Part shown: positions 15,353 to 58,233 of the stretch, piece by piece
How positions within the stretch are numbered: the stretch's first letter is position 1
How the letters are laid out: the number at the start of each line of letters is the position of its first letter
Assembly: GCA_030611415.1 (NCBI GenBank)
Contig: JAUWPW010000002.1
Span: 19,761 to 83,760, forward strand
From: Candidatus Bipolaricaulota bacterium
Lineage (GTDB): Bacteria; Bipolaricaulota; Bipolaricaulia; UBA7950; UBA9294
Reading direction: 5' to 3'
Length of the DNA: 64,000 nucleotides
The notes under the pieces: model-generated
What the model was told of the DNA's origin: nothing
What the model saw: the letters and a program-made list of their open reading frames with translations, nothing else
Database searches by the model: none
Program-made: the position numbers and the translations under genes

Positions 15353-15394
15353 TACGACTATTCGCTTGATACTTGATCTGTCGGACGGCGTGCA

Positions 15395-15432: not shown

Positions 15433-15477
15433 CTTTCGTATACTTCATGAATACAGTGTGACGATCCTTGTAGTGAG

Positions 15478-22765: not shown

Positions 22766-22809
22766 GAAGACCGACCCGAACCTTGGTCTTAGTTGCGTGG
22801 GATATACAA

Positions 22810-22897
22810 GATGTCCCTCCGCTGGCATTATCCAGATCAGGTTCCAAGGGTCGAGGTCTTACCTCCTCTCAGCCCAGAAATATGAGCTCCCCTGATA
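22810..22897 (-). promoter_or_regulatory. TPP (thiamine pyrophosphate) riboswitch aptamer
   Basis: Minus-strand reads cagGGGAGCucauauuucuGGGCUGAGAggagguaagaccucgACCCuugGAACCUGAUCUGGAUAAUGCCAGCGGAGGGA, the canonical THI-box core. Confidence 0.85.
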
Positions 22898-22902
22898 GAA
22901 TT

Positions 22903-22931
22903 ACTATACACCTACTAACGGCTCGAATCAA
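22903..22931 (-). promoter_or_regulatory. sigma70-like promoter for the riboswitch/thiL operon (TTGATT-17-TATAGT)
   Basis: Minus-strand -35 TTGATT (22931-22926), 17-nt spacer, -10 TATAGT (22908-22903). Predicted TSS falls at the riboswitch 5' end. Confidence 0.55.
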
Positions 22932-30907: not shown

Positions 30908-31016
30908 TCGCAAAATAAGCAGATCCCTCTTATCGGGGATTCATGCGCCAATGGGTGGGAAAGGTTTATCTCTTTCCCACCCCTCCTTGGGACCCACAAG
31001 AGAAGGACGGCAATTG

Positions 31017-32045
31017 ATGAGTATGTTGAAGTTCTTGGGTAAACGGTTGGCGTTATCGCTCTTCGTCCTGTTTGGACTCTCTATCCTGATCTTTACAATC
31101 TCGCGGATCTTGCCTGGCGATCCGGTTCGCATGGCCTTGGGATCGCGAGCCCCCCAGTGGGCTGTTGATAACCTTCGCGAGCAGATGCACCTGAACGACC
31201 CTCTCTACGCGCAATATTACTACTGGCTCACCGGCGCAGTGCGTGGCGACTTAGGTCAATCTCTGTTTACCCGGCGGGCGGTGATCGAGGATGTGAGGGA
31301 ATTTCTCCCTGCAACGATGGAACTCGCTCTGTCCGCTGGGGTGATCATGGCGGTCTTCGGGATCCTTCTCGGTGCAGTCTCCGGTCGCTACAGCAACACG
31401 TGGATCGACAACAGCGTTCGCATCTTCTCGTATATCGGGATCGTTACACCATCTTTTGTCTTTGCTATCCTGTTCTTGTTGTTGTTCGGCTATGTGCTGA
31501 ACGTGCTGCCGACCATGGGACGGCTTAGTCCATGGATAGCGCGCCCTCCCGTGATAACAGGAATGGTCTCCCTGGATGCCCTGCTGAGTGGCAACTTCGC
31601 TGCTTTTGGTGATGCTATTAGACACCTGATTCTCCCGGCGGTCAGCTTGGCATTGGGAGGAATGGCCCAGGAGGCACGGATCACCCGTTCCACGATCAGT
31701 GACAATCTGCGCAAGGACTACATCGCATCGGCAAAGGGATTTGGGGTCCCTGAGCGCTTGGTTATGTTCAAATACCTCCTCAAGCCGTCTTTGATCCCAA
31801 CCGTCTCCATTCTGGGGTTAGATTTTGCCTCCCTCATCGGAAACGCTTTCTTAGTGGAACTCATATTCAACTGGCCCGGTTTTTCACGGTATGGGATCCA
31901 CGCCATGTTGAACAAGGATCTGAATGCCGTTTCCGCCGTGGTGATGGTCCTAGGAGTGATCTTTATCATCGTCAACATCCTCGTTGACTTGATAGTGGCA
32001 TGGCTTGATCCACGTATCCGGCTGGGCGCCGAAAGGGGCAAATAA
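31017..32045 (+). CDS. ABC transporter permease (DppB/OppB-like)
   Basis: MSMLKFLGKRLALSLFVLFGLSILIFTISRILPGDP N-terminus; the ORF-track start 30951 is rejected. Confidence 0.85.
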   Translation: MSMLKFLGKRLALSLFVLFGLSILIFTISRILPGDPVRMALGSRAPQWAVDNLREQMHLNDPLYAQYYYWLTGAVRGDLGQSLFTRRAVIEDVREFLPATMELALSAGVIMAVFGILLGAVSGRYSNTWIDNSVRIFSYIGIVTPSFVFAILFLLLFGYVLNVLPTMGRLSPWIARPPVITGMVSLDALLSGNFAAFGDAIRHLILPAVSLALGGMAQEARITRSTISDNLRKDYIASAKGFGVPERLVMFKYLLKPSLIPTVSILGLDFASLIGNAFLVELIFNWPGFSRYGIHAMLNKDLNAVSAVVMVLGVIFIIVNILVDLIVAWLDPRIRLGAERGK

Positions 32046-32047
32046 AC

Positions 32048-32932
32048 ATGAACTACTCGCGGAATACTTTGCTGAAACGTCGTGCGGAGGGGTTCAAGAA
32101 GGGTTGGTATAAATTCTCTCGAAATCCTGTCTCCGTACTGGGATTATTCTTCGTATTGACGGTCTCGTTTCTTGCGATCTTTGCCCCTTACGTGTCGCCG
32201 TACCCAACACACGCTAGCCGGTTCGTCAATTTTGCCGAGGCTGGTCAGCCCCCGAGCTTGAAACACCTGTTTGGAACGGATGTATTTGGGCGGGATATCC
32301 TGTCACGAGTCTTCTTTGGCTTCCGCTATTCGTTGATGATGGGGGTCGTCGTTCTGTCGCTTGTAGTTATTCCAGGAGTTGTATTAGGGTTGGTTGCCGG
32401 GTACTACCGTGGGACGTGGATCGATACAGTGATCATGCGGACTACCGATATCTTCCTTGCCGTTCCGCCACTTATCCTGGCTTTGGCCATCTGTTCGGTC
32501 CTTACCCCAAGCGTTTTCAACGCGATGATGGCCGTATCTTTGATGTGGTGGCCGTGGTATACCCGACTGGTCTACGGTCTTTCCTCGTCGTTGCGTACCG
32601 AGTTCTTCGTGCAGGCGGCCGAGGTTACCGGAGCGAGCCGTTCTCACATCCTATTCCGCGAGATCCTTCCCAACTGTGTCTCCAGTATCTTCACCAAGAT
32701 GAGCTTGGATATGGGGTGGGTGATCCTTATCGGTTCGGCTCTGAGTTTTGTTGGGTTGGGGGCTCAGCCTCCGATCCCGGACCTGGGCACTATGGTGGCC
32801 GATGGGGCCAAATACCTACCGGATCAGTGGTGGATTACGATCTTCCCTGCCTTCGCGATCATGATCACGGTCCTTGGCTTCAATCTGATTGGCGACGGGT
32901 TCCGCGATTTGTTCGCGCTTGAGGAGGTCTAG
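32048..32932 (+). CDS. ABC transporter permease (DppC/OppC-like)
   Basis: 294 aa BPD_transp_1 permease, 2 nt after the previous gene. Confidence 0.85.
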   Translation: MNYSRNTLLKRRAEGFKKGWYKFSRNPVSVLGLFFVLTVSFLAIFAPYVSPYPTHASRFVNFAEAGQPPSLKHLFGTDVFGRDILSRVFFGFRYSLMMGVVVLSLVVIPGVVLGLVAGYYRGTWIDTVIMRTTDIFLAVPPLILALAICSVLTPSVFNAMMAVSLMWWPWYTRLVYGLSSSLRTEFFVQAAEVTGASRSHILFREILPNCVSSIFTKMSLDMGWVILIGSALSFVGLGAQPPIPDLGTMVADGAKYLPDQWWITIFPAFAIMITVLGFNLIGDGFRDLFALEEV

Positions 32933-32933
32933 G

Positions 32934-33920
32934 ATGGGAGAAACTTTGCTGGAGATCGGGAACCTGCACGTCGAGTTCAAGGTCTACGAGGGACGTCTCC
33001 GAGTCCTGAACGGCGTCAACCTGTCGGTTCAAGTTGGAGAAAGGGTGGGTTTGGTCGGGGAGGCGGGTTGTGGGAAGACGACCACAATGAAGTGTGTGCT
33101 TAAGATCCTTACCTCTCCTCCAGGAAAGATCACGGAAGGGAAGATTCTACTTCACGATAAGGATGTCTTGACCATGGGATCACAGGAGATGCAGCGAGTT
33201 CGCGGACACGGGATCTCCATGATCTTCCAGGATCCGACCGCTGCGTTGAATCCCGTGTTCACCGTGGGTGATCAGTTGATGTCGGTCATTAAGTACGGAT
33301 CCAAGGGGTCCCTCTCGAAAAAGGAGATCAAAAAGCGGGCGATCGGAACGCTACGGGAGGTACGGCTCCCCGATCCGGAGCGAATATTCACCAACTATCC
33401 CGTGCAACTCTCCGGGGGGATGCGGCAGCGGGTCTGCATCGCGATGGCGCTTTCCACCGAACCAGAGCTGCTGCTCGCAGATGAACCAACTACCTCGCTC
33501 GATGTAACGATCCAGGATCAAGTCCTCCGTTTGTTGAATGAGCTTGTTGAGAGGCATGGAACTTCTGTTATCTTCATCACCCACAGTTTGGGGGTAGTGC
33601 GCGAGATGGCCGACCGTGTCTACGTAATGTACGCGGGAAACATCATCGAAGGGGCGCGTAAGGAGGAACTATTCGCCAACTGGTTGCATCCATATACCCT
33701 TGGTCTGATGAACGCCCTCCCCAAGCTAACCGGTGGCGGGATTGCAGAAGGAATCCCAGGGAGGATCCCGGAGTACCTCGATCCACCGTCCGGCTGTCGG
33801 TTCCATCCGCGTTGCCCACGGGCAATGCAGCAATGCAGTCAGTCAATCCCACCTGTTGTGCACGCAGCTGACGATCACGATGTAGCTTGTTTCCTGTACC
33901 GAGGTGAGACCGATGAATAG
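32934..33920 (+). CDS. ABC transporter ATP-binding protein (DppD/OppD-like, with oligopeptide C-terminal domain)
   Basis: GEAGCGKTT Walker A, LSGGMRQRVCIAMAL signature. Confidence 0.85.
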   Translation: MGETLLEIGNLHVEFKVYEGRLRVLNGVNLSVQVGERVGLVGEAGCGKTTTMKCVLKILTSPPGKITEGKILLHDKDVLTMGSQEMQRVRGHGISMIFQDPTAALNPVFTVGDQLMSVIKYGSKGSLSKKEIKKRAIGTLREVRLPDPERIFTNYPVQLSGGMRQRVCIAMALSTEPELLLADEPTTSLDVTIQDQVLRLLNELVERHGTSVIFITHSLGVVREMADRVYVMYAGNIIEGARKEELFANWLHPYTLGLMNALPKLTGGGIAEGIPGRIPEYLDPPSGCRFHPRCPRAMQQCSQSIPPVVHAADDHDVACFLYRGETDE

Positions 33921-34911
33921 CAAGATCCTTGAGGTCGAAAAGCTGCGCAAGTTCTTCATCACCTCTCGCGGAACGGTGCGTGCGGTCGATGAGGTCTCGT
34001 TCTCCGTGGAGGAAGGGGAGACGTTGGGACTGGTTGGGGAATCGGGCTCGGGTAAGAGTACGGTTGCGTACACCGTGGTCGGGCTCCACTCGCCAACTTC
34101 AGGACAGATCCGATTCAAGGGAGAGGATATCTCGCGGCCGGTATCGAAACGCCCCAAAGCACTGAAACAATCGATCCAGATCGTCTTTCAGGATCCAGGA
34201 ACATCGCTCAATTCACGGCGAACGATCCAACAGATCCTTGAGCTCCCGCTCAAGGTGCACCACTTGGGAAACTCACGCGACCGCAAGGAACGTGTAGTGG
34301 AGCTCTTGGAGCGCGTAGAGCTCCCGCCAGACTACATGTACAAGTCCCCAAACATGTTGGGCGGCGGAGAACGGCAGATGGTAGCGATCGCCCGCGCACT
34401 GGCGACAAACCCGAAGTTGGTTATTCTCGACGAACCAACTTCCGCATTGGATGTATCCATTCAGGCAAAGATCATCAACATGCTGCTCCGGTTTCAGGAA
34501 GAGATGAAACTCTCCTATCTCTTTATCACACATGATTTGAGCTTGATGAGGAATGTCTCTACACGGGTCGCCATCATGTACTTGGGAAAGATTTGTGAGG
34601 TGGCCCCAACGATGAAGTTCTTCTCAAATCCGTTTCATCCATATACAAAGATGCTCCTCTCCTCTATTCCTGTTGTGCTGCCAGAGGAAGAGGCGGTGAA
34701 GCCGGCGAAGATCACTTCGGAAGGGGAGATCCCCAGCCCGGTGAATGTCCCGCCCGGTTGCGGATTTCACACACGCTGCAGGGAGGTAAATGGGATCTGT
34801 TCACAGAAGATTCCTGAGATGATGGAGGTGGAACCTGGGCACTTTGTCTGGTGCCACCTGTTTCCCGTGGTCACGACCCCGACAAACTTAGAAAAAGGAG
34901 TGAGCGTATGA
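33913..34911 (+). CDS. ABC transporter ATP-binding protein (DppF/OppF-like)
   Basis: GESGSGKST Walker A, LGGGERQMVAIARAL signature; overlaps the previous gene by 8 nt. Confidence 0.85.
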   Translation: MNSKILEVEKLRKFFITSRGTVRAVDEVSFSVEEGETLGLVGESGSGKSTVAYTVVGLHSPTSGQIRFKGEDISRPVSKRPKALKQSIQIVFQDPGTSLNSRRTIQQILELPLKVHHLGNSRDRKERVVELLERVELPPDYMYKSPNMLGGGERQMVAIARALATNPKLVILDEPTSALDVSIQAKIINMLLRFQEEMKLSYLFITHDLSLMRNVSTRVAIMYLGKICEVAPTMKFFSNPFHPYTKMLLSSIPVVLPEEEAVKPAKITSEGEIPSPVNVPPGCGFHTRCREVNGICSQKIPEMMEVEPGHFVWCHLFPVVTTPTNLEKGVSV

Positions 34912-35678
34912 GCAAGATACTGTGGATCGATCCGGTGGGAACTGATCTTTTCGATCAGCCGATCAAGGAGTTCTTGGAGACGGCGAAGGGCCCGGAGACA
35001 AAGCTTGATGTTGTCTCTCTCGCGCGAGGACCGATGCACCTTGAGTATCATTACTACGAGGCTTTGATCCTAACCGATACGCTACATGCCGTGCGGAAGG
35101 CTGAGCTCGACGGATACGACGCTGCTGTAATCGGCTGCTTCTACGACCCCGGACTTCGCGAAGCCCGCGAGCTCAGCGAGCGACTTGTCGTGACCGCGCC
35201 GGCTGAGGCAGCGATGCACATCGCCACAACCCTGGGTCATACCTTCTCCATCCTCGTCGGGCGGAAGAAGTGGATCCCCAAGATGCATGAAAACGTAGTG
35301 AAGTACGGCTTCACCGATCAGCTTGCCTCGTTCAAATCGCTTGGAATGGGGGTCTACGAGTTCCAGAAGGATCCTGCGGAGACTGCACGCCGGATGCGTG
35401 CGGCGGCGAGGGAAGCGGTGGAGGTTGATGGAGCAGAGGTGATCATCCTTGGATGCACCATCGAGTTCGGCTTCTACAAGGAACTACAGGAAGAGTTAGG
35501 GGTTCCTGTTATCGATGCCGTTCTCGCACCGCTCAAGTTCGCGGAGTTCCTGACGGGGCTGAAGGATCAATTCAATTGGACACACAGCAAGATCTACGGG
35601 TATCAATCCCCTCCACGAGAGGAGATCGTTGAGTGGAAGCTGGAAGAACAGTACGGAACCTCGGGGTTGTGGGGGTAG
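34908..35678 (+). CDS. Asp/Glu/hydantoin racemase-family protein (hydantoin racemase HyuE-like)
   Basis: About 256 aa; two conserved Cys motifs (VIGCFYDPG and IILGCTIEFG) like the catalytic Cys pair of hydantoin racemases. ATGA overlap with the ATPase gene. Confidence 0.7.
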   Translation: MSKILWIDPVGTDLFDQPIKEFLETAKGPETKLDVVSLARGPMHLEYHYYEALILTDTLHAVRKAELDGYDAAVIGCFYDPGLREARELSERLVVTAPAEAAMHIATTLGHTFSILVGRKKWIPKMHENVVKYGFTDQLASFKSLGMGVYEFQKDPAETARRMRAAAREAVEVDGAEVIILGCTIEFGFYKELQEELGVPVIDAVLAPLKFAEFLTGLKDQFNWTHSKIYGYQSPPREEIVEWKLEEQYGTSGLWG

Positions 35679-35683
35679 GGAAT

Positions 35684-37285
35684 ATGGAGACGAAGAGAGA
35701 GTTGCGCGTTGGATTCGATGTTGGAGGGACCTTCACTGATGGGGTGCTCATGTGTGGGCGGGAGGTGTTGGCCAAGGCGAAATCACTGACGACCCCGGAC
35801 GTAACCGGAGGGATCGTTGAGGCCCTTGAGGCGGTGATGACAAAATCCGGGGCCAATCCGGCAGAAGTAGCCATGGTCTCGTTGGGTACTACCCATACGA
35901 CGAACGCCCTTATTGAGCGGAGGAACCTGAATCAGGTGGGGATCTTCCGGTTGGGAGCTCCAGCGACAACGGCCATCCCTCCGTTGACCGGCTGGCCGGA
36001 GAGCCTAAAGGAGGCGATCGGCGGACACGAACTCGTGCATATCATCCGCGGTGGATCGGAGTATGACGGGCGCGACATCGTTCCGCTCGACAAGAAAGCG
36101 ATCGAGGACGCCTGCAAATCGATGAAGGGAAAGGTCGATTCGGTGTCAATTACCGGGGTCTTCTCCCCGATCATCAACGACCACGAGGAGCAATCAGCGG
36201 AGATTGTGCGCAATGTGCTCGGGGAAGATATTCCCATTACGCTCTCCCACCGCATTGCCACCATCTCACTCCTGGAACGGGAGAACTCGACCATCCTCAA
36301 CGCTTCCGTCATTACGGTGATGCGGCGCGCGGTCAACTCCTTGAAAGCTGCTGTGCGCAAGCGAGGGATCGATGCTCCTCTATTCATCGTGCAGAACGAC
36401 GGAAGCGTGATGTCTGCCGACTACGCTATCGACTACCCGATATTCACCGTTGCTTCCGGGCCGGCGGCGAGCGTCCGCGGGTCGGTATACCTTTCGGGAA
36501 TCGAGGACGGGGTGGTGGTCGATATCGGAGGGACATCAACCGATGTAGCCTACATCGTCAAGGGGTTCCCACGGGAGTCGTCGATCACGGTGAACATCGG
36601 TGGGGTCAAGACGAACATCCGCTGCCCCGACCTGCTGTCCATTGCTCTTGGCGGCGGGACGATCGTTAAACACAAGGATGATGATGTAATCGAACTCGGA
36701 CCGGAGAGCGTCGGCTACAACCTAGTTCGACTAGGTAAGTCGTTCGGCGGGCCGCTGCTAACCGTGCATGACACAGCAGTCGCGTTGGGCAAGCTACAAC
36801 AGAAGCTCGATGTTTTTAAGACCGATTACGTCACCCACCCCGAGAAGATCAACGCTGTGCCGAAGGCGTTAATCAAGAACGCATGGGTTGCGATCAAGAC
36901 TACGATTGAGGAGGTCATCGACAAGATGAAGACGACACCCGAACCGGTCCCCGCCATCTTTATCGGTGGTGGAGCGTTGGTTGTCCCTAGGGAGAAGATC
37001 ATCGGTGTCAGTGAGGTCCTCATGCCAGATCACTTTGAAGTGGGAGGCGCCGTGGGAACAACGATTGCTGAGATCGGAGCCTATGCGGAAGGAGTCGTCG
37101 ATCTTGATATTGAAGACCGCGCCGAGGCAATCGTCGAGGTAACTGAACGCGCCAAGGATAACGCCGAGGCAGCCGGGGCGATTCGTAACACCGTAGAGGT
37201 GATTGACGTAGAAGAGATTCCCTTTACGTACATGCCTGGGAAGCGCGAGAAGATCCGGATTAGGGTGAAAGGGCAGGTGCTCTAA
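35684..37285 (+). CDS. hydantoinase/oxoprolinase-family protein, HyuA-like but about 150 aa shorter
   Basis: ELRVGFDVGGTFTDGVL N-terminus and Hydantoinase_A-type middle domain. Start is ATG 35684 or GTG 35633. Confidence 0.7.
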   Translation: METKRELRVGFDVGGTFTDGVLMCGREVLAKAKSLTTPDVTGGIVEALEAVMTKSGANPAEVAMVSLGTTHTTNALIERRNLNQVGIFRLGAPATTAIPPLTGWPESLKEAIGGHELVHIIRGGSEYDGRDIVPLDKKAIEDACKSMKGKVDSVSITGVFSPIINDHEEQSAEIVRNVLGEDIPITLSHRIATISLLERENSTILNASVITVMRRAVNSLKAAVRKRGIDAPLFIVQNDGSVMSADYAIDYPIFTVASGPAASVRGSVYLSGIEDGVVVDIGGTSTDVAYIVKGFPRESSITVNIGGVKTNIRCPDLLSIALGGGTIVKHKDDDVIELGPESVGYNLVRLGKSFGGPLLTVHDTAVALGKLQQKLDVFKTDYVTHPEKINAVPKALIKNAWVAIKTTIEEVIDKMKTTPEPVPAIFIGGGALVVPREKIIGVSEVLMPDHFEVGGAVGTTIAEIGAYAEGVVDLDIEDRAEAIVEVTERAKDNAEAAGAIRNTVEVIDVEEIPFTYMPGKREKIRIRVKGQVL

Positions 37286-38463
37286 TGAGCAATCCGCGAT
37301 CAAACGCACGTGCCATCCTTGAGAAGTGGGGGATCAAGAACTTCCGCGTTATCGATAAGGAGGCAATCAGCGAGATCACGCTGGGAGCCTCCATCCTCGC
37401 TACAGGTGGCGGAGGAGATCCGGAGATCGGTCTCCTATGGACCTACAAGGTGATCGATGAGGGGAAGGAGATCCTCATGGTCGATCCAATAGATGTTCCC
37501 GATGGTATCCAAACAGCGAGCACGGCCTGCCTGGGAGCGGCGATTGTCCTCACGGAGAAGCCGCCGAGTGGAGAGGTGTTAAACCTGGCGATGGGGCGCC
37601 TCGAACAGTACCTGGGAAGACCGATCCAGGCGACGATCCCACTCGAATGTGGAGGGGTCAACTCTCCTGTCGCCTACGCTGCTGCCGGAGAACTTGGTGT
37701 TCCCGTAATCGATGTTGATGGGATGAATCGCGCCTTCCCCGAACTACAAATGACATCGTGGGTGACACATGGTGTACACTCCTCTCCCACTGTCTCGGTG
37801 GATAACAGGAAGAACGTTACCGTGATCGATACCGGAGACGATGATGTGTTAGCGGAGACACTCGCCCGTCGGGTAGCGATGGCCTATGGTGGTATCTCGT
37901 GGATCGCCACCTACCCTCTGACTGGGAAGCAGGTGAAAGAGACCTCCATCCTCTACTCGCAGAGCATTGCCTGGGCGGTGGGACGTGCAGTTATGCGTGC
38001 CCGCAGGGAACACCTGGATCCGATTGGGGAGCTTCTGAAGAGCCTGAAGAAGGAGCGAAACGTGGAAGGGTTCCGCGTGTTTAGCGGAAAGATTGTGGAT
38101 ATCAACCGCGACTTCGGTTCGGAGACAAATAAGGGATTTACATTAGGATCGGTTACTGTAGATGGTATCGATACGTACAAGGGTCAGACAGCTACCCTCG
38201 ATTTTCAGAACGAGTGGCTAAACCTGCGCATCGATGGGAAGGTTCTCTGTTTGCCACCGGACCTTATCGCAATCCTCGACTCAGAGACCGGAGAACCGAT
38301 CCGCACCGACATCATGAAGTACGGCTATCGGGGAACCATTGTCCTCATCCCGGCGCACGAGCGGATGAGAACAGCAAAAGGGATCGAGATGTTCGGTCCG
38401 CGTCACTTCGGCTACGACCTGGATTATGTCCCTGTAGAAGAGCTTAACAGTGACAGGAGGTGA
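37285..38463 (+). CDS. DUF917-family protein, copy 1
   Basis: ASILATGGGGDPEIGLLW and PLECGGVN...GVPVIDVDGMNRAFPELQMT motifs as I recall for DUF917; TAATG overlap with the HyuA-like gene. Confidence 0.7.
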   Translation: MSNPRSNARAILEKWGIKNFRVIDKEAISEITLGASILATGGGGDPEIGLLWTYKVIDEGKEILMVDPIDVPDGIQTASTACLGAAIVLTEKPPSGEVLNLAMGRLEQYLGRPIQATIPLECGGVNSPVAYAAAGELGVPVIDVDGMNRAFPELQMTSWVTHGVHSSPTVSVDNRKNVTVIDTGDDDVLAETLARRVAMAYGGISWIATYPLTGKQVKETSILYSQSIAWAVGRAVMRARREHLDPIGELLKSLKKERNVEGFRVFSGKIVDINRDFGSETNKGFTLGSVTVDGIDTYKGQTATLDFQNEWLNLRIDGKVLCLPPDLIAILDSETGEPIRTDIMKYGYRGTIVLIPAHERMRTAKGIEMFGPRHFGYDLDYVPVEELNSDRR

Positions 38464-38472
38464 GAGAAAGAT

Positions 38473-38742
38473 ATGGATCTGAAAGCCATTATCGAATCTG
38501 ATGCAAGGTACCGCAACGTGCTTCAGGAGATTATCGATACCCCGTACATCGAACGGTCGACGTTGGAGGAGAAACTGAACCTCCCCCGAGCCGATCTAGA
38601 GTCGCTGTTGACGGTTCTTTCTGAGAAGATGTTGATCCTAGAGCTTGCTGGCCAGGCGGATTCAAGCGTTGAGTCACGTGTATTGAAAACAGTGTACCTG
38701 GTCAACCCTGAGGAAGAGAAGGGCATTCGTGAACACCTCTAA
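38473..38742 (+). CDS. small hypothetical protein (89 aa, acidic)
   Basis: AGGAGGTG SD about 11 nt upstream; overlaps the M24 start by 14 nt. Confidence 0.4.
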   Translation: MDLKAIIESDARYRNVLQEIIDTPYIERSTLEEKLNLPRADLESLLTVLSEKMLILELAGQADSSVESRVLKTVYLVNPEEEKGIREHL

Positions 38743-39847
38743 CTCTACGGAACACGCAAGGCGGCTTGACGCGCTGCTTGAACGGATGCGCGAGCATGAG
38801 TTGGGGCTCGTCCTTCTCTTCGATCGGGACAATATTCGCTACTTCACGGGTTTCCGGTTGAACCGGGTGGTCGCCTCCATCTTGGCGATCTCCCCTGAGG
38901 AAGGTCCGACTTACATCGTGGCGAAATTGGACCTAAACCGTGCGAAAAGGGATGGATGGATCGAGCGGGTCATCCCGTTTCCAGAGGACACCCCAAATTA
39001 CCTCGACGCTCTGCGTCCTCTGTTCGGCAATTCGGGCAAACGGATCGGCGTTGAAAAGGACTCGCTGACTCTGTCGCAGGCCGAGTATCTACGTGGTTTG
39101 AGTAGTGAGAAGAGTGAGTTCGTCGATGTGCGCGCTATCACATCCGAGTTGCGTGCAATCAAGTCTGATGAGGAGATCGCCTGCCTTCGGCGAGCGGCCG
39201 AGATTGCCAGTAATGTCATGGAACTGGTGCAGGGTGCTATTCGGCCGGGCGTTCGCGAGATCGAGCTCTCCTCCTGGACAGAGTACCTCATTGGACAGGA
39301 AGGCGCGGAAGGTGCCTCGTTTGAACCGTTCTTCATGTCGGGCGAGAACGCGTGGCTTCCGCAGCGAATCTCATCGCAGAAGGTGTTGGCTGAAGGGGAA
39401 CTGGCTCTGTTGGATATGGGCGCGATCTACGATGGTTATTGCTCAGATATCACACGGACTTTTGCCATTGGTGACATCTCACCGGAGCAAGAGCAAATCT
39501 TTCGGGTTGCACGAGAGGCGCAACAAGCGGGGATCGAAGCGATTCGTCCCGGTGTTCGTGCCTGTGATGTTGATGCCGCTGCACGAACTGTGATCGAGGA
39601 CGCTGGCTTCGGGGAGTACTTCCCGCACCTCACTGGGCATGGAATTGGGATCTCCTCGCATGAGATGCCGATTGCGGACCGCGGGGTAGAGACGATCCTC
39701 CAATCGAGTATGGTCCTGACCGTGGAACCGGGGATCTATCTTCCGGGGATAGGTGCAGCGCGCGTCGAGGACATGGTGGTCGTCACCCCACTCGGATGTG
39801 AGGTTCTGACCAGCGCTCCGCGTGGACTAACGGGGAAAAAGGAGTAA
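38729..39847 (+). CDS. M24-family Xaa-Pro peptidase/creatinase-fold hydrolase
   Basis: Creatinase_N-like N-domain (RLDALLERMREHELGLVLLFDRDNIRYFTGF) plus pita-bread metal-ligand region (D..D...H...E..E pattern). Confidence 0.8.
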   Translation: MNTSNSTEHARRLDALLERMREHELGLVLLFDRDNIRYFTGFRLNRVVASILAISPEEGPTYIVAKLDLNRAKRDGWIERVIPFPEDTPNYLDALRPLFGNSGKRIGVEKDSLTLSQAEYLRGLSSEKSEFVDVRAITSELRAIKSDEEIACLRRAAEIASNVMELVQGAIRPGVREIELSSWTEYLIGQEGAEGASFEPFFMSGENAWLPQRISSQKVLAEGELALLDMGAIYDGYCSDITRTFAIGDISPEQEQIFRVAREAQQAGIEAIRPGVRACDVDAAARTVIEDAGFGEYFPHLTGHGIGISSHEMPIADRGVETILQSSMVLTVEPGIYLPGIGAARVEDMVVVTPLGCEVLTSAPRGLTGKKE

Positions 39848-39849
39848 AA

Positions 39850-40995
39850 GTGGGTGTAAGAGAGATCCTTCGCAAGTGGGGAGTTACCGACTTCCAAGTG
39901 ATCGATAAGAAGGCGCTTTCGGAGATCACCTTAGGTGCGTCGATCCTGGCCACCGGAGGCGGGGGAGATCCTGAGATCGGCCTTCTGTGGGCGTATAACG
40001 TGGTCGATCAGGGAAAGGAGATCCTCCTTATTGACCCTGAGGCGATGCCCGATGAGGCTTTGGCGGCGATCGCCGGGTGCCTTGGAGCAGCGCTTGTTCT
40101 CACCGAGAAACCACCGAATGGTCAAGAGCTCTTCTGGTGTTATGACAGTCTGCGCCGTTACATGGGCAAGTCGATCGAGGCTGTTGTTCCCCCGGAGGCC
40201 GGTGGGGTCAATACGCCGGTCCCGATGGCCGTGGCTGGGGCAGTCGGGATTCCCGTCATCGACGCCGATGGTATGGGACGCGCCTTTCCCGAGCTGCAGA
40301 TGACCTCCTTCTACATCCACGGGGTCTCCCCGTCGCCAACGGCGGCGGCGGATGAGAAGGGACACGTGACTATCTGCGACGCATCAGATGCACTGCTGAC
40401 GGAGCGGATCATCCGCAACGCGGCGATGGCCTACGGGGGTATCTCATGGATCGCGGGGTATCCGATGACCGGGCGCCAGCTCAAGGATACGGCGATCTTG
40501 CGATCTATATCCATGGCCTGGGATCTGGGGAAGCGCGTATTCAACGCGCGGCGCAAGCACCTCGATCCTATTGCTGAGGCTATTAATCTCACCGGAGGAT
40601 ACCGTGCGTTTCAAGGGAAGATCGTCGACATCGATCGGGAATTCGGGGCGGAGAAGACTAAGGGTTTCTCCCTTGGGCGGATCACGGTGGAGGGGACCGA
40701 CGATTTCAAGGGACGGACCGTCGTCGTCGATTTCCAGAACGAGTGGTTGAACCTGGAGATCGATGGAGAAGTTCGCTGCATGCCGCCGGATCTGATCTGC
40801 ATCCTCGACCCGGCGACCGGGGAACCGATCCGCACAGACATCGTGCGCTACGGATATCGAGGGACTGTGCTTCTCATCCCCGCACACGAACGGATGCGGA
40901 CAGAACGGGGGATCGCCACGTTCGGTCCTCGCTACTTCGGTTACGATCGGGACTACATCCCTGTGGAGAGGCTCATGGAGAGCACAAGTGGATGA
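39850..40995 (+). CDS. DUF917-family protein, copy 2 (paralog of 37285..38463)
   Basis: Same motifs as copy 1 (ASILATGGGGDPEIGLLW, GGVNTP...GIPVIDADGMGRAFPELQMT), high identity by eye; GTG after AAGGAG. Confidence 0.7.
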   Translation: MGVREILRKWGVTDFQVIDKKALSEITLGASILATGGGGDPEIGLLWAYNVVDQGKEILLIDPEAMPDEALAAIAGCLGAALVLTEKPPNGQELFWCYDSLRRYMGKSIEAVVPPEAGGVNTPVPMAVAGAVGIPVIDADGMGRAFPELQMTSFYIHGVSPSPTAAADEKGHVTICDASDALLTERIIRNAAMAYGGISWIAGYPMTGRQLKDTAILRSISMAWDLGKRVFNARRKHLDPIAEAINLTGGYRAFQGKIVDIDREFGAEKTKGFSLGRITVEGTDDFKGRTVVVDFQNEWLNLEIDGEVRCMPPDLICILDPATGEPIRTDIVRYGYRGTVLLIPAHERMRTERGIATFGPRYFGYDRDYIPVERLMESTSG

Positions 40996-41975
40996 GGATT
41001 CAGCGTTTTGTCCAAGTCGTCGACACTCATACTGCTGGTGAACCGACGCGTGTGGTCCTTGACGGACTTCCTCCCATCCCCGGCAAAACGATGGCCGAGC
41101 GGCGTGCGTGGTTCGATGGACCGGGCAACGACCTGCGGCGGTTCCTCCTGCGGGAACCACGTGGACACACGGATATGTTCGGAGCAGTTATCACCCCGCC
41201 CATTAACCCGGCAGCAGATTATGGACTGATCTTCCTCGATAACGGCGGGACGCTTTCGATGTGCGGGCATGGAACGATCGGAGCAGTGACCGCCCTGGCT
41301 GAACTAGGACGAATCCACAAGAAAGAGGTTCTACTCGATACTCCATCCGGCCTTGTGACCTGTCACCTTCATTGGAAAGAGGGCGAGGTTCAGGATGTTA
41401 CCTTTCGTAATGTTCCTTCTTTCTTCCTAAGGACTGTGCAATGGAAAGGGGTCCCGCTTCACCTTTCCTACGGGGGGAATCTCTTTGCTCTAGTGGAGGC
41501 AAGTTCCCTGGGCGTTGAACTTAAGCGGCAGAATATACGTGAGATCGTGGATCTTGGAATGATGATCAGAAGCTGGACCAACCGGAACCTCACCTTTCAC
41601 CATCCCGCGACAGGGAATCCTTTGTTAGTAGATCTGGTGGAATTCTACGAGGAGACCGATCCTCCGAGGAATGTTGTCGTTTTCGGAAGGGGACAGGTCG
41701 ACCGGTCCCCTTGTGGAACGGGAACCTGCGCCAAGATGGCTTTTCTCCACGCGGAAGGGAAGCTCGCTGTGGGGGAGGAATACCGCTACCAAAGCATCTT
41801 GAAGACAGAGTTTACAGGAAAAATAATCTCTGAGACGAACGTAGGAGATACCCCAGGGATCATCCCCGAGGTGAGAGGATCTGCTTACGTAATGGCTCTT
41901 GGCTCCCTCGTTCTTACGAAGGACGATCCGTTTCCGGCAGGCTTTGATCTGGAAAATGAAGAGGTAAAGCACTAA
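40992..41975 (+). CDS. proline racemase / 4-hydroxyproline 2-epimerase family enzyme (Cys/Cys type)
   Basis: MRIQRFVQVVDTHTAGEPTRVV N-terminus; both catalytic Cys motifs (SMCGHGTIG and DRSPCGTGTCAKMA). ATGA overlap with DUF917 copy 2. Confidence 0.85.
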   Translation: MRIQRFVQVVDTHTAGEPTRVVLDGLPPIPGKTMAERRAWFDGPGNDLRRFLLREPRGHTDMFGAVITPPINPAADYGLIFLDNGGTLSMCGHGTIGAVTALAELGRIHKKEVLLDTPSGLVTCHLHWKEGEVQDVTFRNVPSFFLRTVQWKGVPLHLSYGGNLFALVEASSLGVELKRQNIREIVDLGMMIRSWTNRNLTFHHPATGNPLLVDLVEFYEETDPPRNVVVFGRGQVDRSPCGTGTCAKMAFLHAEGKLAVGEEYRYQSILKTEFTGKIISETNVGDTPGIIPEVRGSAYVMALGSLVLTKDDPFPAGFDLENEEVKH

Positions 41976-45297: not shown

Positions 45298-45434
45298 CCT
45301 CGAACCCTAGAAAACAGCAAGTCTTTCTGTTGATACTCACCTAAATCTATCTACTTCTGACTAATTAATACAAGAAACGATTCTCTAAAAGCTAGTCACA
45401 ATCTGATAAATTCCCAACCTAACATGTTGTTCTC

Positions 45435-45463
45435 TTGACACAGGACATAATATATGATAAAAT
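45435..45463 (+). promoter_or_regulatory. sigma70-like promoter TTGACA-17-TAAAAT upstream of the glycine-zipper gene
   Basis: Read directly: TTGACA 45435-45440, 17-nt spacer, TAAAAT 45458-45463; sits in a 270-nt AT-rich intergenic region. Confidence 0.5.
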
Positions 45464-45563
45464 AGGAGTAGACCAGAGAAGAGAGTAAGAGGAGGTGTTA
45501 TATATGATGTTCTAGGTATTGATGGTTGTCTCTTTTGGATTATGACAATCTAGTGGACCTTTC

Positions 45564-45983
45564 ATGCCGTACACAAGGAGGCAAGAAGTGACGAAATTGA
45601 AGAGTGTTGTTAGCGTTATGCTGGTTCTATTGATGGTGACCGTACCGGTTTTCGGATCGTTTGCTCAAACTCCCGTCACAACAGCAAGTCAAGAACAAAG
45701 AGAGGATCAACTACTGGTTTGCCCCTTCCAACAGATAGAAAAACAAGGAGGTAAAGAAGTAGATGACGAGAAACTGGGAGAGGAAGAAGGGGAAGGATTC
45801 TTCACGTGGGCTGGAGCTACACTAGTGGGTGCAATCGGGGGAACAGTTACAGCAATTGGGGTCTACGGGGTAAGCAACTGGGGGCATTGGAGCACGCGTG
45901 GACTCGCTCATGCAGCACGAGTTGGCGCTGCGGCTGGTGCTGGCTGGGGTGCTACAGTGGGTTACTTCATCCCTTGGTTCTAA
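45564..45983 (+). CDS. secreted glycine-zipper protein (Sec signal, acidic linker, Gly/Ala-rich amphipathic C-terminus ending PWF)
   Basis: Signal peptide ...VVSVMLVLLMVTVPVFGSFA|QTP; C-terminal GATLVGAIGGTVTAIGVYGV and AAAGAGWGATVGYF GxxxG repeats. Alternative start GTG 45588 after AAGGAGG. Confidence 0.6.
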   Translation: MPYTRRQEVTKLKSVVSVMLVLLMVTVPVFGSFAQTPVTTASQEQREDQLLVCPFQQIEKQGGKEVDDEKLGEEEGEGFFTWAGATLVGAIGGTVTAIGVYGVSNWGHWSTRGLAHAARVGAAAGAGWGATVGYFIPWF

Positions 45984-46052
45984 TCAAATAGCACGTGATC
46001 ATGCCAGAGGCCAGATATCTACTGACCTCTGGCAAATAGAAGGAGTATGACA

Positions 46053-46361
46053 ATGCCATACTGGCTTACCTATCTAGAGCTAACAGCTTTAGGAGTGCTC
46101 TTGTTCTTTGTTATTGGCATAACGTGTGTTGCTTGCATTGTGTTCTTTCGATGCATAGTAATGCACAAGGGGCTTAACGATACAGTGCGGTACTGCAAGA
46201 TGTATAAATGGACAATTCTCTTGGTAGTAGCCATAACGGTACTGTTTTGGGGTCTGCATATGGGAATAAGGATACCGTGCTTCTCGATTATTGAGACTGG
46301 CCTTTTTGTTATAGGAACCATTTGGGTAGCTCGAGGAGTGCTTCCAGCACTGTTTACATGA
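46053..46361 (+). CDS. small 3-TM membrane protein (immunity-protein-like)
   Basis: About 102 aa, three hydrophobic helices; AGGAG SD 8 nt upstream; ATGA overlap with the next gene. Confidence 0.55.
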   Translation: MPYWLTYLELTALGVLLFFVIGITCVACIVFFRCIVMHKGLNDTVRYCKMYKWTILLVVAITVLFWGLHMGIRIPCFSIIETGLFVIGTIWVARGVLPALFT

Positions 46362-47053
46362 ATCCTGCCACGCACAACAACCCACCTAGTTTCCATCATA
46401 GCATAACAGGTTTGTTCCTGGCAGGCATTATCACGGCCACATTCTGGCTCTCAACCAACGGGTGGCCAGTGATCTCTTACAGGGAGCTCAGATACGAGAA
46501 CGTCGATCGACAAGAGGACTTTTACAGCTGTGGGCCAGCTGCACTTGCCACTATCTTCTCAGACTTCTTTGGAGTTCAGGTTAGTGAGAATGAATTTGCC
46601 AACTTCATTTCACATTATTCACGCCAGGATCCAGACAACAAATCAACCAAAGAGATTCCAGAGAACGGTGTTTCAATGCTCGATTTGAAACAGGCCAGTA
46701 TCAAGAAAGGGATCCCAGCTAAGGGATATGAAATACCCAAAGGTAACCTGGGCACAATCTTACACGAGCTCTCCCTACCCGTCCTAATTCACTTGGATAC
46801 ACCTGATGAACACTTTGTGGTCGCGGTAACTCAGGTTGGCCAGAGAATTGTGTTGGCTGATCCCTCATGGGGAATGAGGGTGATTTCTTTGGCAGAGCTT
46901 TGTCGGTGCTGGGACGGATTAGTCTTAGCATTCGCTCCAAACCAAAGAAGTGCGGATCGAGTCAAAGTGGTAATCCGACAGATTCAAGGAAAGATAGTGG
47001 AAGGAATGAAGACCCTTCAACTCTCCAAGATATTTCTATGGACACTGAGCTAA
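46358..47053 (+). CDS. membrane-anchored standalone papain-fold cysteine peptidase, C39-like domain
   Basis: N-terminal TM (GLFLAGIITATFWL), then DFYSCGPAALATIF (Cys), HFVVAV (His) and ADPSWG (Asp) in C39 order. Confidence 0.6.
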   Translation: MNPATHNNPPSFHHSITGLFLAGIITATFWLSTNGWPVISYRELRYENVDRQEDFYSCGPAALATIFSDFFGVQVSENEFANFISHYSRQDPDNKSTKEIPENGVSMLDLKQASIKKGIPAKGYEIPKGNLGTILHELSLPVLIHLDTPDEHFVVAVTQVGQRIVLADPSWGMRVISLAELCRCWDGLVLAFAPNQRSADRVKVVIRQIQGKIVEGMKTLQLSKIFLWTLS

Positions 47054-47793
47054 CTAAAAAGGTGTCGATTAGTATCATTTGCACACTAATAACACTTCTA
47101 CTCACTGCAACTACTGCCCAAGGGATAGATGCGCTCCAATTTCGGCAAGGAGAAAAGGCTTGGCAAATTACAGCACAAGTTTCAAGATACATCAATACCA
47201 TTCCGTACTATTCTGTAGATGATTGCGGCTTATGGCACAATGTTGACAAAACCGTTGGGCTCGTATTCAGCTTTGCCAGTTTCTTAGATATCACCAGCAA
47301 ATTGGCTGTTCAAGGCCAGTTCTCTCTTCATAGCGCCTCTGTATGGACTCGAAGGCTCAACCTTTACTACGGCACAGAACAGACCATAATGACTAAGACA
47401 AAAGAACTAGGACAAAGCTCTCTTAAGATAAGATACGTTTTTTACCAGACCCCAGACATAAAGGCCCATCTATCAATCCCCCTAATAGGGGACACTATCG
47501 GGATTGGATTCAGTTGGACGAGTGACCCTGTCATGGTTCTCCCAGAGATCAGGATTTCACCCACAGGCATTGAACTCCTGAGCGGGCTTACATTTGTCGC
47601 AAACACTAAGCTTGCACTAACGGCAAGAATACGCTTAGTAGAGCAAGCTGCTAGCTCAAAGATTGCCTTATCCATTGGCTTAGTTTACAGAAAAACAGAT
47701 TACGAAGGTGTTCAAGTTGTTGGAACAATAGTAAGGGGAGATTCCACTCAGGTAAATATCCAGCTAGGTGTATGTTATGGGAGAGAGCAGTAA
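47038..47793 (+). CDS. secreted beta-strand-rich protein (hypothetical)
   Basis: Signal peptide KKVSISIICTLITLLLTATTAQG followed by alternating hydrophobic/polar strands; overlaps the previous gene by 16 nt. Confidence 0.5.
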   Translation: MDTELTKKVSISIICTLITLLLTATTAQGIDALQFRQGEKAWQITAQVSRYINTIPYYSVDDCGLWHNVDKTVGLVFSFASFLDITSKLAVQGQFSLHSASVWTRRLNLYYGTEQTIMTKTKELGQSSLKIRYVFYQTPDIKAHLSIPLIGDTIGIGFSWTSDPVMVLPEIRISPTGIELLSGLTFVANTKLALTARIRLVEQAASSKIALSIGLVYRKTDYEGVQVVGTIVRGDSTQVNIQLGVCYGREQ

Positions 47794-47868
47794 CGACACC
47801 ACGCATTGACAACAACATGGCTTGACAGCGATCCATGATTGACTTATATTGCAACGTGGGATCTTATT

Positions 47869-47940
47869 GGGCCCATAGCTCAGCGGCAGAGCAACCGGCT
47901 CATAACCGGTCGGTCCCAGGTTCGAACCCTGGTGGGCCCA
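47869..47940 (+). tRNA. tRNA-Met (anticodon CAT; elongator type, could be tRNA-Ile2 if lysidinylated)
   Basis: Cloverleaf folds by hand: acceptor GGGCCCA/TGGGCCC, D stem GCTC/GAGC, anticodon stem ACCGG/CCGGT with loop CTCATAA, T stem CCAGG/CCTGG with TTCGAAC loop. The 1:72 pair is intact, so it is not an initiator. CCA not encoded. Confidence 0.85.
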
Positions 47941-47949
47941 CAGGAAACT

Positions 47950-48471
47950 ATGGAGAAACTATTTGTTTACGTGGCCGGTAAGGTACGAGGTAAGCCAGGA
48001 GCGGCTGCGATCGGGATTGCTATTACAGACAAACAGGGAAACGTCATAGAAGAGGTTTCCAGGCTCATTGGCAGGAGTATCCCACAAGCAGTTGTGTACC
48101 AAGCCCTGATAGAAGGATGCAAACGAACGCTTGCTTACTCGCCACAGTCAGTGATATTCTTCATCGACAACCAATCCGTAGTGAATCAACTGAATGGGAT
48201 CTTGGAAAGTCGACAACCCCACCTACAGCATCTGCTAGAAATAAGCAAGGGTTACCTGAACAAGTTCCCAGAATGGCGGGTTAATTTCATCGATAGCAAT
48301 GTTAATCGGAAGGCACCCCGTCTTGTCGAACGAGCGTTCCATAATCGTATCCAGGCAGAAATGACGCATGAACACCTCGATCTACGCTTACTGGCCTATA
48401 CAGCTTCGCTCAGTAATTCCGATATGGAGCAATTGATTGAGCACGCCAAGCACTTGCAGGATAAGAGGTAA
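47950..48471 (+). CDS. RNase H type-1-like domain protein
   Basis: LFVYVAGKVRGKPGAAAIGIAITD resembles the DGASRGNPGPAG motif of RNase HI-like proteins. Starts 10 nt after the tRNA; the ORF-track start 47839 overlaps the tRNA and is rejected. Confidence 0.6.
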   Translation: MEKLFVYVAGKVRGKPGAAAIGIAITDKQGNVIEEVSRLIGRSIPQAVVYQALIEGCKRTLAYSPQSVIFFIDNQSVVNQLNGILESRQPHLQHLLEISKGYLNKFPEWRVNFIDSNVNRKAPRLVERAFHNRIQAEMTHEHLDLRLLAYTASLSNSDMEQLIEHAKHLQDKR

Positions 48472-48476
48472 AGATC

Positions 48477-48917
48477 GTGCGTGTTGTGCTGCAGCGGGTC
48501 AGCCAAGCCTCAGTTAGTGTTGATAATGCGACTCCTATTACAATCGGGCAGGGAGTTCTCTTGCTGATTGGCATCGGCAGGAATGATAGTGATGTTGGTT
48601 TTTCCCGGCTGGCAAGAAAAGTCGTAAACCTTCGCGTTTTCGAAGATAGCCAAGGGAAGATGAATCTCTCTTTGCGTGATGTCGGCGGGGAGATCCTTGC
48701 TGTGTCCCAGTTCACTCTGTACGGAGATACACAAAGAGGGCGTCGTCCGAGTTTCTCTACAGCTGCCCCATCAACTGAAGCAAAAGCCCTCTTTTCGGCT
48801 TTTGTTTCAGCCCTTGTCGCAGAGGAGATCCCCGTAAAGACGGGAAAATTTGGCGCTAAAATGTCAGTGGAGCTTGTCAATGAAGGGCCGGTAACACTCC
48901 TTTTTGAAACCCCTTGA
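48477..48917 (+). CDS. dtd: D-aminoacyl-tRNA deacylase
   Basis: MRVVLQRV...SQFTLYGDTQRGRRPSF signature; GTG start with AAGAGG SD. Confidence 0.85.
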   Translation: MRVVLQRVSQASVSVDNATPITIGQGVLLLIGIGRNDSDVGFSRLARKVVNLRVFEDSQGKMNLSLRDVGGEILAVSQFTLYGDTQRGRRPSFSTAAPSTEAKALFSAFVSALVAEEIPVKTGKFGAKMSVELVNEGPVTLLFETP

Positions 48918-54964: not shown

Positions 54965-58072
<3,108 letters not shown>

Positions 58073-58105: not shown

Positions 58106-58223
58106 TCCAGGTGATATATAGCAGAGGGGTCACACCCGTTACCATACCGAACACGGAAGTTAAGTCCTCTAGCGCCGATGGTACTAGCCTTGCGAGGGGC
58201 TGGGAGAGTAGGTCATTGCCTGG
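58106..58223 (+). rRNA. rrf: 5S ribosomal RNA
   Basis: CCGAACACGGAAGTTAAG...AGCGCCGATGGTACT...GAGAGTAGG conserved 5S blocks; terminal helix CCAGGUGAU / AUUGCCUGG. Confidence 0.85.
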
Positions 58224-58233
58224 TTTCTTTTTT
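58205..58233 (+). terminator. T-tract (TTTCTTTTTT) following the 5S terminal helix
   Basis: U-run directly after the 5S closing stem; end of the rRNA operon. Confidence 0.4.

Follow-up and report, generated by a model that had tools for sequence, protein, structure and literature searches.

Can a double-glycine peptidase that is not part of an ATP-binding cassette (ABC) exporter secrete a peptide, and by what route would the peptide leave the cell? The question is raised by four small genes, here called A to D, at positions 45298-47868 of a 64,000-nucleotide (nt) stretch of contig JAUWPW010000002.1 from a Candidatus Bipolaricaulota bacterium; this whole stretch is referred to below as the window. 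The original prediction had described the genes as a horizontally acquired, toxin- or bacteriocin-like module for production, processing and immunity, lying beside a tRNA-Met gene. We consider it fairly probable that they form an operon for Sec-dependent, ABC-independent, two-step secretion of a bacteriocin-like glycine-zipper peptide through a FapD-like C39 peptidase (C) and a FapF-like barrel (D), gene B encoding a putative immunity protein. The original prediction was right in outline on function and wrong on origin. The four open reading frames (ORFs) lie in the same orientation at the places first reported for them. The two overlapping junctions could be read directly from the sequence as described, one an ATGA at 46358 that joins the stop codon of B to the start codon of C, the other a 16-nt overlap of C and D at 47038-47053. 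The genes and the parts of gene A are as follows.

45588..45983, plus strand: gene A, a 131-residue pre-pro-peptide with a GTG start and the Shine-Dalgarno sequence AAGGAGG at 45575-45581.
45588-45668, plus strand: signal peptide of A, residues 1-27, ending in GSFA with Q as the next residue.
45669-45797, plus strand: acidic pro-region of A, residues 28-70 (43 residues, net charge -8).
45798-45980, plus strand: predicted mature glycine-zipper domain of A, residues 71-131 (61 residues, 41% Gly+Ala, net charge +2, two zipper runs).
46053..46361, plus strand: gene B, a 102-residue inner-membrane protein with three transmembrane segments (3-TM) and the Shine-Dalgarno sequence AAGGAG at 46040-46045.
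46358..47053, plus strand: gene C, a cysteine peptidase of the C39 family, free-standing and 231 residues long, with a hydrophobic segment near the N-terminus (about residues 15-33) that acts as anchor or signal by prediction.
47038..47793, plus strand: gene D, a 251-residue protein with a signal peptide, modelled as a 12-stranded outer-membrane β-barrel and a putative export channel of the FapF type.

The product of gene C matches the Pfam family Peptidase_C39 (PF03412) with an E-value of 4.9e-20 and 72.2 bits, well above the gathering threshold of 22, over profile positions 3-132 of 133. Seventeen relatives retain the oxyanion residue Q52 and the catalytic residues C58, H152 and D168. The C39-like peptidase read from the sequence at the outset is therefore upheld both by the family model and by its active site. 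Profile matches in the PDB are to the double-glycine protease domains of PCAT (peptidase-containing ABC transporter) and ComA transporters. No ABC transporter is fused to C, and none is encoded in the cassette or its annotated flanks. Its homologues at three distant loci (L036, L037 and L038) bear classical cleavable signal peptides, and the catalytic domain of C is expected to lie in the periplasm. The best NCBIfam model is C39_FapD (NF058616, an equivalog model) with 68 bits, far under its cut-off of 330. Comparison with Neisseria NapP (sequence taken from S1 Fig of PMC11798529) gave 28% identity and an E-value of 2e-15. Its sequence thus marks C as a genuine C39 peptidase whose nearest counterpart is the periplasmic FapD. 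As a separate observation, C is the fastest-evolving gene of the operon: contigs in which B keeps 92-97% identity show 72-78% for C. An 18-residue insertion at about residues 83-100 (NFISHYSRQDPDNKSTK-like) is missing from two homologues, P0002 and P0005.

Gene D had been described as a secreted β-rich protein. The signal peptide and the β structure were both recovered, but the model is that of a 12-stranded outer-membrane β-barrel. The AlphaFold2 (AF2) model calculated from a 60-sequence alignment comprises the signal peptide, about 13 residues and 12 β strands, with a predicted local distance difference test score (pLDDT) of 94.2 and a predicted template-modelling score (pTM) of 0.80. It replaced a run with 8 sequences that was unusable (pLDDT 52.6). 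D alone matches no Pfam or NCBIfam family and no FapF model. Word-indexed searches with D, as a single sequence or as a profile, returned almost only close relatives, and an exhaustive profile search of representatives was used in their place. It yielded a family of about 100 clusters at 50% identity, nearly all of 250-280 residues. Among 60 family members, seven match the Pfam family OMP_b-brl and one matches NCBIfam FapF, at 1.8e-4. The profile built from these 60 sequences finds FapF in the PDB with an E-value of 1.6e-9, the next best match being at 2e-3; against the short FA1090 allele of NapF, for which the query was read by optical character recognition, the profile gave no significant match. 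The family hallmarks are I-D-x-L near the N-terminus, D163-P164 and F186-V-A-N189, and the stretches RDPVVL and GFVAN of D align with FDPAVL and AFALNE of FapF. A Foldseek search of the PDB with the model returned outer-membrane barrels only, FadL and FapF leading with TMq values of 0.41-0.49. Profile and model together point to a FapF-like barrel that may serve as an export channel. Bipolaricaulota have been treated as atypical diderms with Thermotoga-like Omp-α/β and an Omp85/BamA-type gene (bioRxiv 10.1101/2021.05.31.446380; PMC6092417), and a diderm envelope makes an outer-membrane barrel plausible.

The peptidase and the barrel are encoded together far beyond the window. All D-family loci that were examined have a C39 gene immediately in front of the D gene, usually with an overlap. 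This is the case in the window's own clade, at loci L005, L010-L013, L015, L024, L025, L028, L031, L032, L036 and L037, and at L038, which is in the complete genome of the cyanobacterium Pseudanabaena sp. ABRG5-3. Where the barrel gene stands at a contig end (loci L034, L035, L039 and L040; family members P0087, P0086 and P0097), the few upstream bases left encode a C39 C-terminus. C39-barrel pairs were found in Bipolaricaulota, in Pseudanabaena, in a metagenome-assembled genome (MAG) labelled Anaerolineae and in unassigned metagenome contigs. According to a single sentence of a review from 2018, homologues of fapD and fapF also lie side by side in five phyla other than Proteobacteria, the cargo not being named (PMC6173800).

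Two observations concern the surroundings of these pairs. In a distant clade, the barrel gene is immediately followed by a gene for a secreted protein of 580-655 residues with a DUF3857 domain and a transglutaminase-like domain of cysteine-protease fold (L013, 1365-3332; L031, 1035-2774; L028, from 1283 to the contig end; L024, from 1933 to the contig end). It may be an extra component or merely a conserved neighbour. A tRNA-Val gene is found further downstream at L010, L025 and L031. At L005, about 4 kb downstream of the cassette (13888-16582), genes for a 579-residue Peptidase_C39_2-like protein and a PKD-repeat protein may belong to a second, unrelated C39-type system.

Gene A would supply the cargo. 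Its start had been placed at ATG 45564. In the upstream regions of nine relatives this codon reads ATA, whereas GTG 45588 and the AAGGAGG preceding it are invariant; gene A is therefore 131 residues long. Behind the signal peptide, the pro-region carries the motif F47-xx-I-E-xx-G-G/A-xx-V58-x4-L63-x4-G68-E69-G70. Among 12 homologues, F47, I50, E51, G54, L63, G68 and G70 are the residues invariant outside the signal peptide, V58 and E69 being nearly so. The second half of the motif, V-x4-L-x4-G-E-G (residues 58-70; recognition form V-[SD]-x-x-x-L-x-x-x-x-G-E-G), resembles a leader and stands directly before the glycine-zipper domain. In distant relatives, residues 46-70 are the best-conserved part of A, with 48-68% identity compared to 15-31% for the mature part.

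The canonical double-glycine leader reads L-S-x-x-E-L-x-x-I-x-G-G. The cargo of other loci carries leader-like motifs: V-S-E-E-E-L-N-Q-V-E-G-E-G at L011, L-T-D-V-E-A-A-K-V-E-G-E-K in Pseudanabaena and L-T-D-T-E-L-A-Q-I-E-G-S at L036. The leaders at L036 (LTDTELAQIEGS) and in Pseudanabaena (LTDVEAAKVEGE) are examples that come closer to the canonical form than that of A. The L036 cargo reaches the Pfam model ComC with an E-value of 9e-4 and 19.4 bits, under the cut-off of 20.4, and a strict regular expression for the leader, run over 2,559 ORFs, matched only the cargo ORFs of L036 and Pseudanabaena. Gene A itself has no canonical leader (L-x3-E-L-x2-[IV]-x-G-[GAS]) at its extreme N-terminus; its motif is internal, behind the Sec signal. 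The cargo is thus predicted to combine a Sec signal with an internal leader of the double-glycine type. The original prediction had opposed the two, with a Sec-type rather than a double-glycine leader: the Sec signal is present, but a double-glycine-like motif follows it. Glycine-zipper runs are present in A as first described, but the matches to glycine-zipper family models stay below threshold: pieces of homologues of A from distant loci match Gly-zipper_YMGG and the model for the YiaD glycine zipper with E-values of 0.002-0.3. Inspection of the A sequence revealed neither Asn/Gln-rich imperfect repeats nor a lipobox.

An exchange of sequence blocks between distant relatives provided a second view of the same boundary. 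L030 is 95-96% identical in nucleotide sequence to L025 and L027 from upstream of A through A codon 77, where the common sequence ends in KKGEG. Beyond this point no similarity is left over the mature part of A and the one or more genes for small membrane proteins that follow; it resumes at about 80% inside the C39 gene. The same block is replaced in L012 and L014 compared with L010, the flanks being about 80% identical. These exchanges were seen in the distant clade and not in that of the window. The breakpoint between L030 and L025/L027 falls exactly after GEG, and is therefore an independent mark of the boundary between leader and mature peptide. A conserved leader followed by an exchangeable block of mature peptide and membrane protein, ahead of processing and export genes that are themselves conserved, is, at the level of sequence, the signature of a bacteriocin or polymorphic toxin with its immunity protein. 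Together with the intact C39 residues and the leader-like motif, it agrees with the production, processing and immunity module first proposed, in which A would be the toxin and B would confer immunity.

Gene B is the best conserved of the four genes, with 92-97% identity in close relatives. The protein would have 104 residues if begun at ATG 46047, but the position of its Shine-Dalgarno sequence favours ATG 46053, and gene callers on related contigs pick the same start. Its first loop is basic. No Pfam or NCBIfam family matches B. At distant loci, the position of B is taken by one to four divergent small polytopic membrane proteins, which form a family of their own with long and short versions. 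We regard B as a putative immunity or accessory protein.

The following signals were located upstream of and within the operon.

45435..45463, plus strand: promoter of the sigma-70 type, TTGACA-17 nt-TAAAAT, 11 of 12 matches, with an upstream TG.
45489..45515, plus strand: strong Shine-Dalgarno sequence GAGGAGGTG and mini-ORF in the 5′ untranslated region of gene A, from the alignment of upstream regions.
46002..46034, plus strand: stem-loop between A and B with 13-nt arms, from an inverted-repeat search and RNA folding.

The promoter is the one noted in the original prediction. In the alignment of nine relatives its -35 element, TTCTCTTGACA, is invariant, and the -10 element is kept as TANAAT/TAGACT, TA[AG]A[AC]T. 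The Shine-Dalgarno sequence of the 5′ untranslated region, which is followed by a start codon, is likewise invariant in the upstream alignment. The mini-ORF here reads ATG ATG TTC TAG (MMF and stop, 3 codons), while in relatives it has 13 codons, MMISVMFVVPFRL and stop; it may be a regulatory leader ORF (upstream ORF). The stem-loop has a folding energy of -19.9 kcal/mol (z = -2.8). Its arms are identical in 10 of 11 sequences, and the one arm change, in L021, makes the stem perfect. It probably raises the expression of A above that of the other three genes, by way of mRNA stability or of partial termination.

We propose the following sequence of events. A single promoter would transcribe A, B, C and D, the hairpin after A probably lifting A over the other three. 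Pre-pro-A would cross the inner membrane by the Sec pathway, and signal peptidase would remove residues 1-27. In the periplasm, the acidic pro-region would hold the glycine-zipper domain inactive and present a recognition helix of the double-glycine type. The membrane-anchored C would cut at or next to G68-E69-G70, releasing a peptide of about 61 residues with two glycine-zipper helices, which the barrel D would then pass across the outer membrane. Outside, the peptide may insert into target membranes or aggregate on the cell surface, as Cdz-type bacteriocins do, and the 3-TM protein B would shield the inner membrane of the producer.

Parts of this scheme have been described elsewhere. The original prediction remarked that the layout is not that of a textbook class II bacteriocin, but precedents exist in FapD/FapF of Pseudomonas and NapP/NapF of Neisseria (PMC5557850, PMC11798529). 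FapD is periplasmic, and its catalytic Cys is needed for the export of FapC through FapF (PMC5557850). As in the Fap system, a free-standing C39 peptidase, predicted to be exported by Sec, is here encoded beside a 12-stranded outer-membrane barrel (PMC5557850, PMC6173800). FapD is the best NCBIfam match of C, the D-family profile finds FapF and shares with it the DP and (F/A)xxN motifs, and the Fap substrates are Sec-exported with sites of the GG/GA type. Unlike Fap, however, the operon has no homologues of FapA, FapB, FapC or FapE and no amyloid-repeat subunits (A and B match no Pfam or NCBIfam family), its barrel of 251 residues has no N-terminal coiled coil and linker, and its peptidase stays at 68 bits against the FapD cut-off. 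Its cargo is a glycine-zipper peptide with an explicit double-glycine-like pro-region, and the cassette includes small polytopic membrane-protein genes and a polymorphic mature-peptide block.

For NapP and NapF of Neisseria, roles in the processing and export of GG peptides have been proposed (PMC11798529). The nap island of Neisseria gonorrhoeae encodes the C39 peptidase NapP, the FapF homologue NapF, the GG peptides NapA-C, the immunity-like NapI and the 3-TM protein NapH (PMC11798529). The parts list is that of the operon described here: small peptides of the GG type, small membrane proteins, a stand-alone C39 peptidase with a signal, related in sequence to C, and a channel of the FapF type, with no ABC exporter. 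The Nap peptides are nevertheless short and cationic and have no Sec signal, whereas A would cross the inner membrane by means of its own signal peptide. The nap genes also form an acquired island of low GC content and variable presence, unlike the syntenic and compositionally normal operon of the window; B has no similarity to NapH, and the proven role of Nap is in autolysis. With class II bacteriocins and microcins exported by PCATs, the operon shares the C39 site of conserved Q, C, H and D residues, an amphipathic acidic leader whose Gly-containing end site directly precedes a Gly-rich peptide of membrane-active appearance, a small polytopic membrane protein beside the structural gene and, in the distant clade, a constant leader with varying mature peptide and putative immunity gene. 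It differs from them in that the peptidase is unfused and predicted to face the periplasm, the leader is internal and behind a Sec signal, the site is G-E-G and not GG, GA or GS, and export across the outer membrane would rely on the FapF-like barrel and not on TolC. In Caulobacter, CdzC and CdzD are contact-dependent, bacteriocin-like glycine-zipper proteins that aggregate on the outer membrane of the producer and are neutralised by the small inner-membrane protein CdzI (PMC5380434). Small hydrophobic glycine-zipper toxins with a small inner-membrane protein as immunity factor are thus common to both systems, and an aggregation-prone cargo would suit an amyloid-type exporter. A has, however, no sequence relationship to Cdz (no family matches).

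Several results weigh against the two-step secretion of a bacteriocin-like peptide. For the channel, the Foldseek TM value of D to FapF is just 0.41-0.48 and FadL scores alike; D also has no N-terminal coiled coil, linker or obvious plug helix in the AF2 model, where about 13 residues precede strand 1. For the cargo, no curated leader, bacteriocin or glycine-zipper model of Pfam or NCBIfam passes its threshold on A. The canonical register would place Glu69 at position -1, which is not a known C39 site and leaves the exact position of the cut uncertain; further upstream, the invariant I-E-x-x-G-G/A offers an alternative candidate for cleavage. Some loci, e.g. L015 and L032, consist of C and D only, with no adjacent cargo. 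Comparison of B with the small membrane proteins of distant loci gave hhalign probabilities of 2-7%, with only a local YKW motif in common, which is not significant, and B resembles NapH no better. Finally, A (82-93%) and B (92-97%) are conserved and not polymorphic inside the window's own clade.

Other functions can be assigned to the same genes. The peptide could act on the producer population itself, in a programmed autolysis or stationary-phase lysis of the Nap type, with B as a holin-like or modulating protein. In the only studied peptide system that is said to rely on a NapP/NapF pair, the peptides promoted autolysis and did not kill competitors (PMC11798529), and the cassette is stably inherited and conserved in the window's clade, B being its most conserved gene. 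Block exchange behind a conserved leader is, however, typical of antagonistic diversification of toxin and immunity, and A, a neutral, hydrophobic glycine-zipper peptide with a Sec signal, is unlike the short cationic Nap peptides, just as B is unlike NapH; we therefore judge self-lysis unlikely. To a similar degree improbable is a minimal functional amyloid or surface fibre of the Fap kind, in which mature A would be a self-assembling subunit, D its exporter, C an activator and B an assembly or anchor factor. It would account for the likeness of C and D to FapD and FapF and for the co-located fapD-fapF pairs noted outside Proteobacteria (PMC6173800); moreover, glycine zippers are common in amyloids, and glycine-zipper bacteriocins make SDS-resistant surface aggregates (PMC5380434). 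A has nonetheless none of the Asn/Gln-rich repeats of FapB and FapC and matches no Fap subunit model, its mature part has only about 61 residues, equivalents of FapA, FapB, FapC and FapE are absent, and structural subunits would not be expected to swap together with neighbouring membrane proteins. Least credible among the functional alternatives is an envelope-resident glycine-zipper protein of the SlyB/YMGG stress type, with D as outer-membrane partner and C as maturation or quality-control protease. The Gly-zipper_YMGG and YiaD matches and the core-like behaviour of the operon in its clade would fit, but all these matches are below threshold, A has no lipobox, and the leader-like motif, the C39-barrel linkage and the swapping of cassettes would be left unexplained. 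We thus retain the secretion of a bacteriocin-like peptide as the preferred reading.

The origin of the operon was addressed by comparing composition and synteny. The original prediction had seen a horizontally acquired islet of atypical composition beside the tRNA. The block 45298-47868 does have the lowest GC content (0.450) among all 2571-bp windows of the 64 kb (mean 0.504, standard deviation 0.030), i.e. about -1.8 standard deviations, and it abuts a tRNA gene. However, the GC content at third codon positions (GC3) of A-D is 0.42-0.50, compared to 0.39-0.56 for ordinary genes of the window when the block at 29-41 kb is set aside. Their codon-usage log-likelihoods, -1.20 to -1.27, likewise lie in the range of ordinary genes (mean -1.207, standard deviation 0.048). 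The GC deficit stems from the AT-rich promoter spacer (GC 0.37) and from codon positions 1 and 2 of the membrane and barrel proteins. A search for a repeat of the tRNA 3′ end gave only 12-17-nt repeats at chance level, none derived from the tRNA, and the precomputed Pfam annotation of neighbouring genes contains no integrase. In 14 related contigs, retrieved through gene C and hence a sample of cassette-bearing loci, the cassette lies between the DAO gene and the tRNA-Met/RNase H-like/Dtd/L32/FtsZ genes wherever the contig includes the flank. The flanking housekeeping proteins are 88-98% identical to those of the window, and the cassette proteins 82-93% (A), 92-97% (B), 72-97% (C) and 84-95% (D). 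All genome matches are to Candidatus Bipolaricaulota/Acetothermia MAGs, two of them labelled Thermotogae. The original prediction had itself named syntenic conservation across the lineage as evidence contrary to its reading, and such conservation is what was found.

The adjoining tRNA-Met was confirmed by ARAGORN and Rfam as tRNA-Met(CAT) at 47869-47941. It has its own promoter-like site, TTGACA-17-TATATT, at 47822-47850. Only 9 nt separate it from an RVT_3/RNase H-like gene (47950-48471), behind which lies a D-aminoacyl-tRNA deacylase gene (48477-48917). The tRNA therefore belongs to the downstream unit, and the arrangement, kept in all close relatives, suggests that it is co-transcribed with an mRNA. 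The different contexts of the cassette in distant relatives (beside pur genes at L005, near tRNA-Val at L010, L025 and L031) indicate that it has moved over deep time, which would favour mobility. Nevertheless, the identical position and flanks in the 14 contigs, the ordinary codon usage and the separate tRNA unit largely refute a recent horizontal acquisition, which we regard as very improbable; a newly acquired island is not what the operon represents.

In composition, the true outlier of the window is not the four-gene operon but a block at 29333-41975. It consists of about 11 co-oriented catabolic genes whose GC3 is 0.64-0.71, except for the last one with 0.55; most other genes have values of 0.39-0.56. 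Pfam places hydantoinase/oxoprolinase-like, S-Me-THD, creatinase/M24 and proline racemase proteins there. This block is a better candidate for horizontal acquisition than the operon.

Textbooks place the processing of double-glycine leaders by C39 domains in the cytoplasm and link it to ABC exporters. For the periplasmic C39 peptidases, natural substrates are still to be established: FapD has no known target, and cleavage by NapP has been predicted only. Unusually well-defined candidates are available in this operon family, where the one cargo gene is small and immediately precedes the peptidase gene, its leader-like motif is invariant, and a natural recombination breakpoint marks the boundary between leader and mature peptide. 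Two questions thereby become directly testable: which features of a substrate are read by peptidases of the FapD type, and by what means a barrel of 12 strands can export a peptide in the absence of ATP. Diversification of the bacteriocin-like toxin-immunity kind would be extended to Bipolaricaulota, a deep-branching and almost uncultured lineage with a Thermotoga-like outer envelope, for which the D family also supplies a putative family of outer-membrane proteins.

More tentatively, FapD/FapF-type pairs could represent a route, widespread among diderms and independent of ATP, by which double-glycine peptides are secreted. The leader would be read in the periplasm after Sec export, and cleavage would be coupled to passage through the barrel. 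In Bipolaricaulota this route would serve polymorphic glycine-zipper toxins with fast-evolving inner-membrane immunity proteins, and Fap and Nap might be specialised offshoots of an older bacteriocin-type exporter. The architecture itself is already known from FapD/FapF and NapP/NapF. To our knowledge of the literature searched, the new elements are an explicit class of cargo in which a glycine-zipper domain stands behind a Sec signal and an internal leader of the double-glycine type, a minimal barrel resembling FapF but with no coiled coil, evidence of polymorphic toxin-immunity-like modules, and the occurrence of the architecture in Bipolaricaulota with relatives in at least one cyanobacterium.

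A defence system or phage module was also considered and rejected, PADLOC and PHROGs searches with the four proteins giving as sole match a 17-bit endolysin on the C39 core. No paralogues of A-D were found elsewhere in the window. The Rfam scan of the whole window gave nothing but the tRNA within 45.3-47.9 kb. Elsewhere it contains a complete 23S rRNA gene (54968-58069) and a 5S rRNA gene (58107-58224) with no 16S rRNA gene upstream, an RsfS-like gene ending at 54759; this points to an unlinked rRNA operon. On the minus strand, a thiamine pyrophosphate (TPP) riboswitch at 22797-22903 scores 71.9 bits, above its gathering threshold, and lies upstream of a minus-strand gene starting at 22828.

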